Origin: an uncultured Candidatus Saccharibacteria bacterium
GTDB lineage: Bacteria > Patescibacteriota > Minisyncoccia > Phycocordibacterales > CSBR16-119
Length of the DNA: 54,623 nt
Direction of reading: 5' to 3'
NCBI GenBank assembly: GCA_964355515.1
Contig: CAYHDV010000004.1
Coordinates: 1 to 54,623 of the forward strand
Of the stretch, positions 2,567 to 40,638 are shown piece after piece. The stretch's first letter is position 1. Every line of letters begins with the position of its first letter. A program made the position numbers and the translations under genes. The notes beneath the pieces were generated by a model, which did not search any database, was not told where the DNA came from, and saw nothing but the letters and a program-made list of their open reading frames with translations.

Positions 2567-3229
2567 TTATTTATTCTTCCTCTTAGAATTCCTCCACTCA
2601 TCAATCTTTTTATGATCACCACTCAAGAGCACCTTTGGTACTTTGTATTTTTTGTCTTTCCAAATTATCTCAGCTGGACGAGTGTAGATTTCTCCACTTG
2701 AAATTCTCTCTTCTTCAAGTGATTCAAACTTCCCCAGCACGCCCGGGATTTGCCTTGAGATAGAATCAATCAAGACCATCGATGGAAGCTCTCCACCTGT
2801 GAGCACATAGTCACCGATAGAGACCTCTTCTGCTTTAAACATCTTTCGAATCCGCGAGTCTATCCCTTCGTAGCGCCCCGAAACCAAAATAATATCAGTG
2901 TAGCCTTTTACTGTTTTCTTGGCATACGCAGTGTCAAACTTTTTCCCTTCGGGGGCAAAGAGAATTATTTTTATCTTAAAATTCTTTTTCTTTTCTATTC
3001 CCTTTTTTGCTTTCTCTATAGCTCGCGCTACAGGCTCTGCCATCATAGTCATCCCCGGACCTCCTCCATATGGCCGATCATCCACCGTGTTGTGTTTGTT
3101 GTTCGCAAAGTCCCGTGGGTTATAAAACTTCACAGAGATTTTCTTACCAGCAATAGCCCGCGCCAAAATAGAGTCTCCTAGGTAAGACTCAAACATCTCT
3201 GGGAAAATTGTAATAATATGAAAATTCAT
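2567..3229 (-). CDS. trmD: tRNA (guanine37-N1)-methyltransferase
   Basis: MNFHIITIFPEMFESYL..., RPYGGGPGMTMM, YEGIDSR and VLTGGELP are classic TrmD motifs. Confidence 0.95.
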   Translation of the reverse strand: MNFHIITIFPEMFESYLGDSILARAIAGKKISVKFYNPRDFANNKHNTVDDRPYGGGPGMTMMAEPVARAIEKAKKGIEKKKNFKIKIILFAPEGKKFDTAYAKKTVKGYTDIILVSGRYEGIDSRIRKMFKAEEVSIGDYVLTGGELPSMVLIDSISRQIPGVLGKFESLEEERISSGEIYTRPAEIIWKDKKYKVPKVLLSGDHKKIDEWRNSKRKNK

Positions 3230-36353: not shown

Positions 36354-37403
36354 TCATAAACTAATACCAGTCTTTGCCCGTATATGTTTCTTTAATTTAT
36401 ATCCATTCCCATGACGGAGCATTCCCAGATACGACTGCACGGTTTCATCTTTTTCAGCCAGCTTCACTTTTTTCATCATTCTCCTCTTTGTACTGGTCCG
36501 TAATACGCGGTGGGACGAAAAATGTACCCAACCTAGAAAATCCACGCCCGAAGAATATGTTTTAATAAAAACTTTGCCTGGATGTAATTCAATTCACAAT
36601 TTTTCTAAAAGAAAAATTGCGATTGTGTTTTTTACTTGTTCCAATTCTTCTCTTCTATGTGAAAGAAATACAAAGTCATCCGCATAGCGAATATAGTATT
36701 TCTGTTTTAGTTTGTGTTTTACAAACTGATCAAATTCATTCATATAAATATTAACCAATAATTGTGATGTAAGATTGCCAAGGGGTAGACCTCTCTTTGT
36801 CATTCCGGACTCGATCCGGAATCTTGTGTTAGATCCTGAAACAAGTTCAGGATGACACCCTGCTGACTGGAAACTATCAATAACTTGCCTCAATAGCCAC
36901 AAGACATCATCATCAAAAATATGTTTTGTAAGAATATCTTTCAAAATTGCATGATCAATACTTGCAAAGAACTTCCTAATATCACATTTTAATACCCAGC
37001 ATTGATTTGTATTGTTTTTTGAAACCTTTCGAAAAAAATCCCTAAATCTATCTATTGCCTTGTGGGTACCTTTACCTACTCTGCATGAATATGAATCATA
37101 AATGAACTTTTTGTCAAAATATGGATACAGTACGCGATAGATAGCATGGTGGAGTAATCTATCTCGCACACTGGCTTTATGAATATCGCGTGGCTTTGGG
37201 TCATTTACCTTGAAAGCTTCATATCCACCATGGATGTAGGTTTTGGTTGAAAGGTCGTAATGGAGGGAGAAAATATTGGACATAAGATTTCTTTCAAATT
37301 CTTGAGTGTCTTTTCGTTTTTTCTTGTCACGGATAAATTCTCTCCACGCTTCGAGCAAGTTTTCAACAGAAATGATAGAATGATAACTATGAATAAGCTT
37401 CAT
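36354..37403 (-). CDS. DGR reverse transcriptase; one frame interrupted by an in-frame TGA at 36594-36596 and carrying a 60-nt repeat insertion
   Basis: NDPKPRDIHKASVRDRLLHHA, KCDIRKFFASIDH, LPLGNLTSQLLVNIY (DGR-type [LIV]GxxxSQ) and YIRYADDFV (YxDD), then after the TGA IELHPGKVFIKTYSSGVDFLGW. The two track ORFs 36594..37430 and 36354..36545 share one frame. Confidence 0.85.
36798..36857. repeat. double-hairpin palindromic element inserted in-frame in the RT gene
   Basis: Hairpins ATTCCGGA-CTCGA-TCCGGAAT (36802-36822) and ATCCTGAA-ACAAG-TTCAGGAT (36833-36853), flanked by TGTCAT/ATGACA. The second hairpin recurs at 40613-40633. Confidence 0.75.
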
Positions 37404-37416
37404 ACCAATAAGTCTA

Positions 37417-37426
37417 CCCCCCCCCC
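37417..37426. repeat. C10 homopolymer tract in the divergent RT/avd 5' region
   Basis: Ten consecutive C on the plus strand at 37417-37426. Confidence 0.95.
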
Positions 37427-37470
37427 GCACACTTTTACCAGTTTTACAAAAAGTAAAAGCGTCATATCTC

Positions 37471-37788
37471 TTGTGGTATCAGTATTTTCAAATACTACCC
37501 AAAACGCATCGTCACTCGATCGGTATTAAAATTGACACACTTTTTACAGAACTTATCGAAGCAATTTCTGTTGCAACTTTTTTGGATAAGACAGAAAAAC
37601 AACCTTGGGTTCGTCTTGCAATACGAAAAAATGACACGATAAAAGTCTTTCTTATGATTCTTTGGGAAACGAAATCTCTTGATGATAAAAAATATATTGG
37701 ACTTTCTGAAAAACTTGAAGAAGTTGGAAAAATGCTTGGTGGTTGGAATGGGCAAATTACAAAATCTCTAGAAAAGAAATCTCCATAA
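37471..37788 (+). CDS. avd: DGR accessory protein Avd-like (four-helix bundle), opposite strand to TR, RT and target
   Basis: YQYFQILPKTHRHSIGIKIDTLFTELIEAISVA ... KSLDDKKYIGLSEKLEEVGKMLGGW. The track start is TTG. Conserved-looking N-terminal residues (LPVLQKVKASYL) continue upstream in the same frame with no start codon. Confidence 0.75.
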   Translation: MWYQYFQILPKTHRHSIGIKIDTLFTELIEAISVATFLDKTEKQPWVRLAIRKNDTIKVFLMILWETKSLDDKKYIGLSEKLEEVGKMLGGWNGQITKSLEKKSP

Positions 37789-37794
37789 ACAAAA

Positions 37795-37819
37795 CTCCCT
37801 CGACTATATGTCGAGGGAG
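37795..37819 (-). terminator. 10-bp hairpin just 3' of the TR (minus strand), followed by TTTTGTTT
   Basis: CTCCCTCGAC (37795-37804) / GTCGAGGGAG (37810-37819). On the minus strand the hairpin is followed by TTTTGTTTATGG. Confidence 0.5.
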
Positions 37820-37834
37820 AAATGAAGAGAGTTT

Positions 37835-37962
37835 CGGAGAGAGAAAACGAACCGATTGTTGGCATTCCACTTGTTGTCGGGATTACCCCAGTTGTCGTTC
37901 AGTTCCAGCTCGTCACCATTGGCATTCAGGTTGAACAACCTCGGCTTGCCAGCGGTAGAAAT
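37835..37962 (-). repeat. DGR template repeat (TR)
   Basis: 128 nt colinear with 38329-38456. All 22 mismatches are A in this copy (minus strand). It contains 33 A and 10 AAY codons in the VR frame. Confidence 0.92.
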
Positions 37963-38303
37963 GTGCAAGGTACCATCTGTGCCTCCACCCTTTCATCACA
38001 ATGTAAAGAAATGGGTTGTATAGTATACGATATAATAATATCCCAGCACCTTGCACCAAGTATCTTCATTTTTTGTGAAGTGTCTACATACACAACGCTC
38101 TATGAAACCCTACCTGCGGTAGGCAGGCGTGATCGCATATATTCTGAATGTATGGATACTGGATTCAGGAGCATACAACCTTGATCGTACACATATTCCC
38201 CTACTACCGATTATAGTATACAAAACTATACACAGTTGTAAAACAAACCAAGGTCAAAGTTCAAAGTGACAAAAGAGAATAAAGTGTCTCATTTCAAAGC
38301 ACT

Positions 38304-38325
38304 ACCTGCCTACCGTTAGGCAGGT
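38304..38325 (-). promoter_or_regulatory. hairpin/cruciform just 3' of the VR (candidate DGR target-recognition element)
   Basis: 9-bp stem ACCTGCCTA / TAGGCAGGT with a 4-nt loop. It starts 3 nt past the VR end and contains the target gene's TAA stop. Confidence 0.6.
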
Positions 38326-40460
38326 TTGCGGAGAGAGAAAACGAACCGAATGTAGGCATCCCACTCGTAGGCGGGACCACCCCAGTCGCCGAACAGTCCC
38401 AGCCCGCCACCACCGGCACTCAGGCCGAACAACCTCGGCTCGCCAGCGGCAGAAATTGGTTTCATATGCATGACTCTCCATGAAGTATCGGTATCAGATA
38501 TTCGTTTTGTTGGGGCAAAATCATGAGGCACCACATCGAGATTGTATTCTTGTGCCTTGTCCATAATTTGTTGGTATGTCGCACCATTTGGGAAACCAAG
38601 GTCTGCAACCGATATGGTAACATTGTTGATTTCTGTCCCTACAGGAGAAGTTCCAAATTCATGAGAGTTGAGCATTTCCTTTGTATTTCCGTATAAATTT
38701 ATGCCACTCTCAATGAGAAGTTTCTCAAGTTCGGGACCTGTTTTACCACCGACGATTGTTTTTTCTTTGTGTATAAGACCCTCAGGAAAACTTGTTGCAA
38801 CATGTTCCAATTGAGATAGTTTGAAAACATCTTTGAAAAGTGGTCCCACATAGACTTTGGTATTTTCATTTACCTGATCTGGAGTACGCGCAAGTTGATC
38901 GGGTCTACAATCAAATACCACATACATATCATACTCTGTATTTCGCTTTTCTCTGACTTCTTTGACGCGAGGATCTGGATCATAGCCAAAGCTTTCAATT
39001 TTGCGATCGATTTCATATAAAAATATCAATTCATCTTTACTCAGTTGTGGATCAAGGTAAATTTTTTCTTTTGTTTCTTTGTCTATACGAAATGACTTTG
39101 TATATATTTCGGTCATGAGTCGCATGTCATGGTCAGCTCGTTCATATTTTTCAGCACCGGGGAGGTCTTGATATTTTTCTTTTGCAATATCAACTAATTC
39201 TGGTTCCAATGCTTGTCTAGTGTTAACTCCGCGGATTTCTCCAATTTTGACATCTTCCATACGAATAGCAACACGCGGTTCAGTATTGATACCATCTTTG
39301 TTTTTTGTGTAATACACATAAAAATCACCTTTTTCAATTTGTCCTTTTGCAGATCCTTCAGCAGTACACCAACCTGTTCCTTTTCCCTGAAGGGATTTCT
39401 CAAGCACCGTATAATCGCTTCCCTGTTCGTATTTTACCCATTCTCCTTCGATAGATTCACGGTTCAATGCACCTGCGGTTTCTACCTGCGCAAATGCATA
39501 GAGTTTAGCAAAATCTGTTGTATGAAGTCTATGCTCAAATTCTTTTCCTAAATCCCCTTTTCGAGATTCTTCCAATGGATATTCGTTGATGAAATCCTGT
39601 GTCAATTCATTTTTATGTGTTTGCAGATATTCACTTCGTCTTTTATTACGAAGATTTTTTAATGCACCTTGGCGAGCAAGTTCAAAGAACTCTGGTTTTG
39701 CTTTTTCTTTGATTTTTTGTTCGGTTTCTGAGTCAAGAATAGTGTTTTGGACAATTTCATTTTCCACATCTTCTGGAATAGTTATAGCATCAATGTCCAT
39801 TTGCAATTCCAAAGATTTTCGTACGAATCCGAGTGATTCTGAATTAAGTTCCGGAAATGGAGCAATAGTGTCTGTAGTTCGTGCAGAATATGAAGGACCT
39901 TTGATGATAATAGGATTACCTTCTTTGTCTTTTCCATTTGCTTCAACATCGTGTCGATTAAATTGCCCCATTTCTTTGAGTCCACGTATGGTGTAATATT
40001 TAAACCACATAGGATAGTCATTTGACGTACGCAAATAGTGTAGCCATGATGATAGAGTTTGTTTTTGAATTTCGTATTTTTCTTTGATTGCATTTTCGTA
40101 TTTTACAAGAATTTCCGTATGAGAAAGTTTTATATTTTCGACTTCGGCTCCATGACCACGCTGGATTGCAATTCTTTTTTCTGATTCATACAGATCTTTG
40201 GCAAGTTTCATGACTAATTCCTTGTCATGCATATCAAGTACAAAATCTTTGACAATCATGCGTTCTAGCAAGTCTGCGCCGGTTCCCAAAACACGCCCAT
40301 CTTTGTCTTTTCGTTCTGTATTCATAACACGCTCGATACGGTCAAGATATGCCTGAACAGGCGAAATATCCTCTTTCTTTTCAAGAGTTTTTGCGCGAGA
40401 GACCTGCTTACTGTCTTCGAGGGTTTGATATTTATTATGGAGAAATTCTGGACCGTTCAT
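38316..40460 (-). CDS. DGR target protein (714 aa) with a C-terminal variable region; N-terminal ~670 aa unassigned
   Basis: Long intact ORF whose last 43 codons are the VR (ISAAGEPRLFGLSAGGGGLGLFGDWGGPAYEWDAYIRFVFSLR). No signal peptide or TM helix seen. Confidence 0.85.
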   Translation of the reverse strand: MNGPEFLHNKYQTLEDSKQVSRAKTLEKKEDISPVQAYLDRIERVMNTERKDKDGRVLGTGADLLERMIVKDFVLDMHDKELVMKLAKDLYESEKRIAIQRGHGAEVENIKLSHTEILVKYENAIKEKYEIQKQTLSSWLHYLRTSNDYPMWFKYYTIRGLKEMGQFNRHDVEANGKDKEGNPIIIKGPSYSARTTDTIAPFPELNSESLGFVRKSLELQMDIDAITIPEDVENEIVQNTILDSETEQKIKEKAKPEFFELARQGALKNLRNKRRSEYLQTHKNELTQDFINEYPLEESRKGDLGKEFEHRLHTTDFAKLYAFAQVETAGALNRESIEGEWVKYEQGSDYTVLEKSLQGKGTGWCTAEGSAKGQIEKGDFYVYYTKNKDGINTEPRVAIRMEDVKIGEIRGVNTRQALEPELVDIAKEKYQDLPGAEKYERADHDMRLMTEIYTKSFRIDKETKEKIYLDPQLSKDELIFLYEIDRKIESFGYDPDPRVKEVREKRNTEYDMYVVFDCRPDQLARTPDQVNENTKVYVGPLFKDVFKLSQLEHVATSFPEGLIHKEKTIVGGKTGPELEKLLIESGINLYGNTKEMLNSHEFGTSPVGTEINNVTISVADLGFPNGATYQQIMDKAQEYNLDVVPHDFAPTKRISDTDTSWRVMHMKPISAAGEPRLFGLSAGGGGLGLFGDWGGPAYEWDAYIRFVFSLRKPA
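38329..38456 (-). repeat. DGR variable repeat (VR)
   Basis: See the TR entry. Substitutions relative to TR adenines: 16 to G, 5 to T, 1 to C. Confidence 0.92.
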
Positions 40461-40553: not shown

Positions 40554-40638
40554 GGATTGCTTCGTGCCTCGCAAAGACGAAGTTTAAGTGGAGTGATTGT
40601 ATGACATCAGAGATCCTGAATTAAATTCAGGATGACAA
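40554..40638. repeat. 25-nt dispersed repeat copy plus ATCCTGAA/TTCAGGAT hairpin, upstream of the DGR target gene
   Basis: GGATTGCTTCGTGCCTCGCAAAGAC at 40554-40578; hairpin at 40613-40633 followed by GACA. Confidence 0.8.

Follow-up and report, generated by a model that had tools for sequence, protein, structure and literature searches.

Organization of the DGR locus

The window analyzed here comprises positions 1 to 54,623 of contig CAYHDV010000004.1 (assembly GCA_964355515.1; forward strand) from an uncultured Candidatus Saccharibacteria bacterium of the Patescibacteriota. It carries a diversity-generating retroelement (DGR) with a reverse transcriptase (RT), a template repeat (TR), a variable repeat (VR) within a target gene, and an accessory gene, avd, on the opposite strand, whose 5' coding region is interrupted by a run of ten cytosines (C10). 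The features of the locus, by position in the window, are:

36354..37403, minus strand: DGR RT, head-to-head with avd (Pfam RVT_1, 5e-26)
37373..37381, plus strand: TGATAGAAT, similar to an extended -10 box; 7 nt separate its end from the avd ATG
37389..37416, plus strand: start codon of avd with the N-terminal leader (MNKLHTNKST, to which the tract adds PP(P)), frame 0
37417..37426, plus strand: C10 simple-sequence repeat, proposed hypermutable switch; its length puts avd out of frame, and relatives have repeats at the equivalent site
37426..37788, plus strand: Avd body (RTLLPVLQK... to TAA), frame +1; the annotated 105-aa open reading frame (ORF) starts inside it, at TTG 37471
37795..37819, minus strand: ten-pair G+C-rich hairpin followed by TTTTGTTTAT, between the TR 3' end and the avd 3' end
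37831..37962, minus strand: TR, a 132-nt block aligned to the VR
38325..38456, minus strand: VR, the last ~45 codons of the target gene
38316..40460, minus strand: DGR target gene of 714 aa without a Pfam match, with the VR at its C-terminus

Read along the minus strand, the order is target gene (with the VR), TR, hairpin and RT; avd, on the plus strand, is flanked by TR and RT. Over 132 nt, TR and VR do not differ at any non-adenine position, and their 23 internal mismatches all fall on TR adenines (16 A>G, 5 A>T and 2 A>C), indicating that the DGR was active recently. Besides these adenine-confined differences, the RT lies beside the TR and the VR occupies the 3' end of the target ORF, as in a DGR. 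The RT was 59-90% identical to RTs linked to avd in ~150 related loci; its NCBIfam RT matches were all under their cut-offs, in a model set without a DGR-specific RT model.

The start regions of avd and RT overlap head-to-head by 15 nt. The avd sequence ATG AAT AAG CTT CAT (MNKLH) is the reverse complement of the RT sequence ATG AAG CTT ATT CAT (MKLIH; 37389-37403), ATGAATAAGCTTCAT on the avd strand corresponding to ATGAAGCTTATTCAT of the RT. Each start codon complements the His5 codon of the other gene, a reciprocal layout found family-wide with variable spacing. An avd gene placed between TR and RT on the opposite strand is architecture B3 as Wu et al. 2017 (PMC5758913) define it in the legend to their Figure 5, and TR-(avd)-RT accounts for 90% of the DGRs of the candidate phyla radiation (CPR) according to that survey. 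The RT was divergent from avd and overlapped its start in every one of the ~150 relatives in which an RT was found. The antisense avd had been regarded as unusual in an earlier note on this DNA, drawn from the sequence by itself; it is instead the prevailing arrangement.

Identity and start codon of Avd

Homologues of the avd product (1569 matches, mostly of 118-140 aa, all from Patescibacteria) have the N-terminal consensus MNKLNxxHTxNSTPP[PR]xLLPVLQKVK. Because they begin MNKLNxxHTxNSTPP, the peptide opened by ATG 37389 corresponds to the N-terminus of the family, and the tract encodes its TPP(P) motif. The N-terminal alignment suggested in the earlier note bears out the resemblance to Avd N-termini that had been proposed there for LPVLQK..Y..W, and so does the NCBIfam Avd profile (NF033474): the protein repaired by joining leader and body aligned from profile position 1 (positions 1-102) and the annotated form from position 15, with the score rising from 46.6 to 52.4 bits against a cut-off of 80 bits. 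The Pfam family bAvd (PF22296) was matched at 4e-10 with 40.3-40.5 bits, for a gathering cut-off of 40. With Avd, no PDB sequence was matched in a profile search, and a fold search was used in its place. The AlphaFold2 (AF2) model of the repaired Avd is a four-helix bundle with a confidence (pLDDT) of 87.6, in which helix 1 spans residues 16-33 and residues 1-10 are predicted to be disordered (pLDDT <50). Foldseek aligned it at a TM of ~0.85 both to Bordetella bAvd (4dwl, TMt 0.84-0.89) and to 8ub7, the DGR ribonucleoprotein, on its Avd chains (0.80-0.86). Judged by this predicted fold, the window ORF is an Avd, with a bAvd-like four-helix bundle.

TTG 37471, where the annotated ORF starts, is residue 28 of the repaired Avd, and a start there loses 12 of the 18 residues of helix 1. 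Across relatives the two Leu codons of LLPV are drawn from both codon families (TTA/TTG/CTA/CTG/CTT/CTC), and this synonymous usage argues that the LLPV segment is translated and under protein-level selection. The homologue N-termini, the profile match from position 1, the span of helix 1 and the synonymous LLPV codons together support ATG 37389 as the true start of avd. Four NCBI proteins labeled as partial Avd (P0122-P0125, from the 90% cluster) were considered as truncated alleles and rejected, being simply cut by contig ends.

A C10 tract separates the avd start from its body

As assembled, exactly ten C occupy 37417-37426 on the plus strand, beginning 28 nt past ATG 37389 within the 5' coding region, in a repeat whose unit is not a multiple of three; on the RT strand this is a G10 located 13 nt upstream of the RT ATG. 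ATG 37389 opens MNKLHTNKSTPP (extended: MNKLHTNKSTPPP...) in frame 0, with a further in-frame ATG at 37380, and the Avd body (..RTLLPVLQKVKASYLLWYQ..) lies in frame +1 relative to it and ends at TAA 37786-37788. Frame +1 is open from 37393 (ISFIPISLPPPRTLLPVLQKVKASYLLWYQ...), and a sequence scan found no ATG, GTG or TTG in it between 37393 and TTG 37471. With C10, frame 0 runs on into unrelated sequence and stops at 37529, after 46 codons. One C fewer (C9) or two more (C12) joins leader and body into a protein of 132 or 133 aa, respectively. The parting of the two frames by the tract, the 132-aa Avd obtained by dropping one C and the 15-nt overlap with the RT start (37403) had all been read from the sequence in the earlier note and proved exact on checking. 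Its further proposal, that a tract of variable length could act as an ON/OFF switch for Avd, or could equally be an assembly indel, is taken up below.

In the window, with 38.8% G+C, 0.01 C/G runs of ten or more are expected, and the C10 is the sole such run present. CCC makes up 11.8% of proline codons, so ACC-CCC-CCC-CC is expected in ~0.3% of T-P-P-P stretches. With so few such runs expected and CCC a rare proline codon, the C10 tract is no chance feature, and the rarity of CCC points to selection on the tract at the nucleotide level. The only other C/G run of eight or more in the window is a C8 at 2490-2497, which codes for Gly-Gly in the frame of a 278-aa hydrolase-like ORF on the minus strand (1786-2622); it could be mutable as well.

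Repeats recur at the same junction in related loci

The junction was dissected in 160 loci, 80 from species-representative genomes (of at least 469 genome matches overall) and 80 from metagenomes; surveyed loci are designated by the prefix L. A repeat census of 157 related loci (734 kb), with an 80-nt junction zone, found 102 long repeats in that zone and 1 elsewhere, so that the search of related DGRs for repeats at this junction proposed in the earlier note placed 102 of 103 there. The junction itself is conserved and consists of an ATG and a leader in which a His codon complements the RT ATG, the tract, 4-7 nt and (C)TTTTRCCNGT, which encodes LLPV. In most surveyed loci the tract is C7-C12. 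In others the following units were found:

(CCAA)n, 2-12 copies: L142, L118, L069, L080, L116, L104
(GCCA)n, 9 to at least 17 copies: L127, L057, L128, L157
(CAAT)n, 7-10 copies: L114, L132
(CAGT)n or (GTCA)n, 5-13 copies: L149, L156, L137
(CGAA)n, 9 copies: L032
(GA)n, 6 copies: L068

All junction repeat units, of 1, 2 or 4 nt, shift the frame. The nearest relatives of the window locus, L001-L004 (four assemblies, with an Avd body 99% identical), have C9 and their body in frame +2, such that C10 or C7 would be needed to join it to the leader. Since these loci are out of frame in the opposite direction, both an artefact of one extra C and a recoding signal of fixed direction are ruled out. In L023, a scaffold of a published metagenome-assembled genome (MHWA01000006.1), Ns fall exactly at the tract (ACCCCCC-N19-CCCCCC), ~60 nt upstream of position 3001; the assembler failed to resolve the tract, an outcome expected if its length differed between reads.

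Tract length differs between near-identical contigs

Alignment of paired contigs from different samples gave six pairs of relatives that were 98.3-100% identical over 1.2-5.3 kb and in which the single indel falls in the tract:

L136 and L148, 2284 bp, 0 mismatches and 1 gap: C10 versus C9, in replicate samples of one groundwater well (Hainich series, ERZ12926xx)
L044 and L099, 5348 bp, 0 mismatches: C9 versus C10
L152 and L162, 1836 bp, 1 mismatch: C8 versus C9
L058 and L145, 5337 bp, 17 mismatches: C10 versus C9
L086 and L087, 3922 bp, 6 mismatches: C10 versus C11
L149 and L156, 1217 bp, 4 mismatches: (CAGT)5 versus (CAGT)7

The tetranucleotide difference between L149 and L156 cannot be a homopolymer miscall. 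The closest proxy for switching within a population appears to be the pair L136 and L148, with C10 and C9 on otherwise identical DNA from replicate samples.

These comparisons bear on whether the C10 of the window is a sequencing or assembly error, in which case the true tract would be C9 or C12, avd would be intact and the locus would have no switch. Indel errors arise most often at homopolymers, the length of C10 is known here from the assembly, and L023 has its Ns exactly at the tract. Exact-protein look-ups (P0001, the neighboring 414-aa flavoprotein and the 201-aa superoxide dismutase) returned no second assembly of the locus, a DNA pattern spanning the tract had 0 matches among genome contigs, and a single metagenome scan gave relatives at 65-75% identity and not the window's own locus. 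The 105-aa product, which is the form expected for out-of-frame lengths, was nevertheless recorded from 2 contigs, and the repaired product of a C9 or C12 allele, which would normally be called from the upstream ATG, was absent from a collection of 15 billion proteins. Furthermore, the nearest relatives share one and the same out-of-frame C9 in four assemblies, tetranucleotide junctions are out of frame in 8 of 15 cases, where a homopolymer miscall does not apply, and errors would not put 102 of 103 long repeats at one junction. We consider an error quite improbable here. The even odds given to it in the earlier note no longer hold for the family, in view of the tetranucleotides and the census, and for this particular tract it keeps some weight.

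Reading frame and constraint at the junction

The frame was analyzed at 139 distinct junctions, 117 with a repeat and 22 without. Leader and body were in frame in 40 of the repeat-bearing junctions (34%, the random expectation), with the body in frame +1 in 48 and in frame +2 in 29. Among repeat-free junctions 15 were in frame (68%; p=0.001 versus 1/3; Fisher p=0.004 versus repeat-bearing junctions), p-values which overstate independence, several of the repeat-free loci being related to one another. The ORF of the Avd body was complete (111-134 codons) in 84 of 84 out-of-frame loci, and the median dN/dS of the body was 0.157 for out-out pairs, 0.073 for in-in pairs and 0.080 for in-out pairs. 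Complete ORFs and low dN/dS indicate that the body is under purifying selection in out-of-frame loci and is not decaying there. The out-out value is about twice the in-in value, compatible either with somewhat relaxed constraint in lineages that are OFF for more of the time or with differing divergence ranges.

An intact body behind a frameshift could also be explained by programmed recoding, in which RNA polymerase stutter or a ribosome shift on CCC-CCC-CCC-C would yield some full-length Avd at a set, low level. Shifts of +1 occur at CCC-C, and transcriptional slippage on long homopolymers rescues frameshifted genes of endosymbionts. A C9-C10 run encoding PPP is a plausible slippage site (poly-proline stall, perfect re-pairing), the out-of-frame bodies are constrained, and the ~2/3 of consensus sequences that are out of frame would be tolerable were some Avd supplied. 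However, the shift needed is +1 in the window and -1 in L001-L004, both wrong frames are common (48 and 29 of 117), and homologues share neither a conserved slippery motif nor a shift direction. In addition, the homopolymer gives way in 15 junctions to tetranucleotides, with 5 to at least 17 units, that are not known to act in recoding, and repeat length varies in the DNA itself. Recoding in place of a DNA-level switch is on these grounds unlikely, if not negligibly so; it may act on top of such a switch in poly-C alleles, adding leakiness.

The random frame distribution is likewise what would be seen if the leader were not part of Avd. Translation would then begin at a non-canonical codon or at TTG 37471, and the repeat would serve the RT, either as a G-rich element for ribosome binding or in the 5'-untranslated region or as a spacer within its promoter. 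In relation to the RT ATG the tract holds a fixed upstream position (mode 13 nt, 35 of 66), GGGGG can pair with the anti-Shine-Dalgarno CCUCC, and overlap with the RT start constrains leader codons 1-5. Yet many out-of-frame loci, the window included, have no ATG, GTG or TTG upstream of helix 1, repeat-free junctions are mostly in frame, and the units (TTGG)n, (TGGC)n and (ATTG)n seen on the RT strand are not Shine-Dalgarno-like. A TTG at the second Leu of LLPV, tried as a substitute start, was not enriched out of frame (36/84 versus 19/55, p=0.38), and the window has TTA at this codon. An RT start upstream of the tract (GTG 37430, MRGGGRLIG-MKLIH), by which the tract would toggle RT too, was also rejected as a general feature: in-frame upstream starts were present in 38 of 98 junctions, and this in-frame extension of the RT does not follow the avd frame. 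A role of the repeat for the RT with a leader foreign to Avd is in our view extremely improbable.

RT lesion and other elements of this copy

The RT of the window has an in-frame TGA at 36594-36596 (minus strand), codon 270 of 349 (..FLLEKL*IELHPGKV..), which precedes the conserved LHPxK...GxDFLGW region. At this site K (96) or R (19) is found in homologues and CGA in the closest relative, L001, and we read the TGA as a single C>T nonsense change, CGA->TGA. The 79 RT codons past it are still open and conserved, with 74% identity to L001. Genetic code 25, in which TGA encodes Gly, was rejected, and so was a site that tolerates TGA, as homologues have K or R and not G at the site and TGA ends 3 of 34 long ORFs; the other genes of the window are intact when read with code 11, and this genome uses TGA as a real stop. 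The RT also contains a 24-aa in-frame insert (SAGCHPELVSGSNTRFRIESGMTK, ~36795-36866) in a loop of variable length among homologues. The insert is a double-hairpin palindromic element (GTCATCCTGAACTTGTTTCAGGATC ... ATTCCGGATCGAGTCCGGAAT; DNA fold z = -3.6) that looks like a small mobile repeat of the repetitive extragenic palindrome (REP) or miniature inverted-repeat transposable element (MITE) kind. A diverged second copy is found at 40612-40636, in the interval that separates typA from the target gene, on the upstream side of the latter.

With a nonsense change before a conserved region and an element inserted in the RT, this DGR copy could be becoming a pseudogene, the avd frameshift being one of several lesions without regulatory meaning. 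Such decay is at odds with the identity of TR and VR at every non-adenine position, with the open and conserved RT frame past the TGA, and with an insert that is in frame and confined to a loop of variable length. It is also at odds with the family as a whole, where out-of-frame avd is intact and selected and where the out-of-frame state is tied to the repeat tract and not to random lesions; we regard it as very improbable, though it does deserve attention for this one copy. The window copy may instead be non-autonomous, or the TGA may be a population variant. The earlier note had extended the effect of the switch to mutagenic homing; with an in-frame TGA in the RT, this part of its proposal may not apply to the present copy.

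In the loci L165-L168, from close relatives (GCA_021734445.1, GCA_017992365.1), contigs break inside avd, and one of these genomes has at least two such contig ends with different neighboring targets (201 aa and 709 aa). It follows that these organisms have several near-identical DGR cassettes, and RT or Avd supplied in trans from one cassette to another is plausible.

The hairpin at 37795-37819 is the sole terminator-like site in 37200-38000. If a terminator, it would make TR RNA and RT mRNA separate transcripts; it could instead be a structured priming element. Upstream of avd, 72 of 102 related junctions have a TAnnnT box whose end lies exactly 7 nt from the ATG, and a TG lies upstream in 56 of the 90 junctions with a TAnnnT box 4-10 nt before the ATG. 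A sigma-70 scan gave no convincing full promoter for avd or RT, TGATAGAAT being unlisted because it has no -35. On the opposite strand, TGATAGAAT doubles as RT codons 8-10 (His-Ser-Ile, within HSIIS). It is possibly the promoter of a leaderless avd mRNA, a suggestion whose support from positional conservation is confounded by RT coding on the other strand.

Discussion

The junction combines a frame-shifting repeat in the 5' coding region, a repeat number that is polymorphic in relatives, natural ON and OFF alleles, a gene that is intact and constrained in OFF alleles, and differing repeat units at one site. For these reasons the C10 tract is probably a slipped-strand phase-variation switch (contingency locus) acting on Avd, seen here in its OFF length. 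Slipped-strand mispairing at replication would add or remove repeat units after ATG 37389 and thereby bring the short N-terminal leader into or out of register with the four-helix body of Avd. When the two are in frame (here with C9 or C12), Avd would be made at full length and the DGR would be capable of adenine-mutagenic retrohoming from TR into VR. Out of frame (C10), translation would end at the early stop at 37529, no intact Avd would be produced, diversification would halt and the current VR would be kept. Because Avd is needed for DGR retrohoming in the systems studied (PMC10053308), OFF alleles would retain their VR and ON alleles would resume diversifying. The earlier proposal of an ON/OFF tract gains strong support from the repeats, length polymorphism and frames of relatives, from which we infer switching itself, its rate and reversibility in a population, the loss of Avd in OFF alleles and the effect on homing.

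Several points weigh against this reading, besides the relatedness of several repeat-free loci mentioned above. That C10 is the majority length at this locus is taken from the assembled sequence. An in-frame fraction of 1/3 is also expected were the ATG leader irrelevant, an interpretation opposed only by what repeat-free loci show, by the lack of another start codon and by the predicted structure. Seven repeat-free junctions (L077, L088, L095, L107, L139, L160 and L161; C5-C6 or no run) are out of frame; they may be decayed copies, use another start or have an ATG mis-assigned by our script. RNA-level slippage on C9-C10 could blur OFF states, and the tract, 13 nt upstream of the divergent RT start, might affect RT. 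Finally, given the TGA in the RT, toggling avd in this copy may be without effect unless RT is supplied in trans.

As a lineage-wide trait, the phase-variation switch would belong to the divergent avd/RT (B3) DGRs of Patescibacteria. We lean towards the wider view that a contingency locus at the very 5' end of the avd coding sequence gates most CPR DGRs, random and heritable in its on/off state and OFF in ~2/3 of natural alleles at any time; its hypermutable repeat would be poly-C or one of at least four tetranucleotides of independent origin.

Simple-sequence contingency loci include lic1A (CAAT)n, hgp (CCAA)n and mod (AGTC)n/(AGCC)n of Haemophilus influenzae and the poly-G/C tracts of Neisseria and Campylobacter. 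The avd junction shares with these loci of host-adapted bacteria a 5' homopolymer or tetranucleotide whose unit is not a multiple of 3 and whose number varies between near-identical genomes, ON and OFF frames that are both natural, and an otherwise intact gene; the units CAAT, CCAA, GTCA/CAGT and GCCA are common to both. It differs in the switched product, which is the accessory protein of a retroelement by which another gene is mutated and not a surface structure, iron receptor or restriction-modification enzyme, in its hosts, which are environmental Patescibacteria and not mucosal pathogens, and in the position of the repeat within a 15-nt head-to-head overlap region. Phase-variable DNA methyltransferases form phasevarions, in which expression is changed epigenetically. 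In these, as at avd, a repeat tract in one gene, regulatory or enzymatic, switches population-wide phenotypic diversity, whereas the output of the avd switch would be targeted hypermutation, present or absent, of the binding site of one protein. Homopolymer slippage rescue in reduced genomes likewise concerns small-genome bacteria with homopolymer-interrupted conserved ORFs, but its tracts are poly(A) and scattered over many genes; those of avd are poly(C) or tetranucleotide, at one junction and variable at the DNA level. Unlike switching at the contingency loci known from experiment, that of avd is deduced from sequences alone. General background on contingency loci is given in PMC3315296, PMC5084427 and PMC6321876.

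Among known DGRs, the window has exactly the layout of the B3 DGRs of CPR (Wu et al. 2017, PMC5758913; clade 2 of Roux et al. 2021, PMC8144416), and the parts of these surveys that were searched make no mention of a repeat tract, frameshifted avd starts or phase variation. The DGR of Bordetella phage BPP-1 (mtd-avd-TR-brt; 4DWL, 8UB7) has in common with it an RT, the Avd four-helix bundle, adenine-specific TR/VR differences and a VR at the target C-terminus; its avd is co-directional, upstream of TR and without a repeat tract, in contrast to the opposite-strand, tract-bearing avd of the window. Phase variation by simple-sequence repeats and B3 DGRs are each known, and their combination to gate targeted hypermutation across a clade appears to be new. 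We take the 2017 paper by Paul and colleagues to be the main one on CPR DGRs. The literature searched, which did not cover that paper (Paul et al. 2017, Nat Microbiol 2:17045), contained nothing that connects DGRs or Avd with phase variation of the element itself, with homopolymers or with repeat tracts.

Annotation is affected as well: gene callers shorten avd genes of this kind (to 105 aa here) or pick spurious starts, and surveys in which a DGR must have an intact Avd may be mistaken about the systems that are active. To our knowledge, little has been established about DGR regulation, notably about how cells avoid re-mutating a binding site that works, and we know of no genetic switch on the avd of BPP-1. 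If the phase-variation reading is true, the avd tract would be a second-order evolvability device, a random switch placed on a mutator, and the first contingency locus described in the CPR, a large uncultivated radiation. Contingency loci, so far found mainly in pathogens and other host-adapted bacteria, would then extend to free-living or episymbiotic ultra-small bacteria. Avd would have a reversible and heritable OFF state, by which the largest environmental clade of DGRs would diversify its targets while ON and keep a useful variant while OFF.

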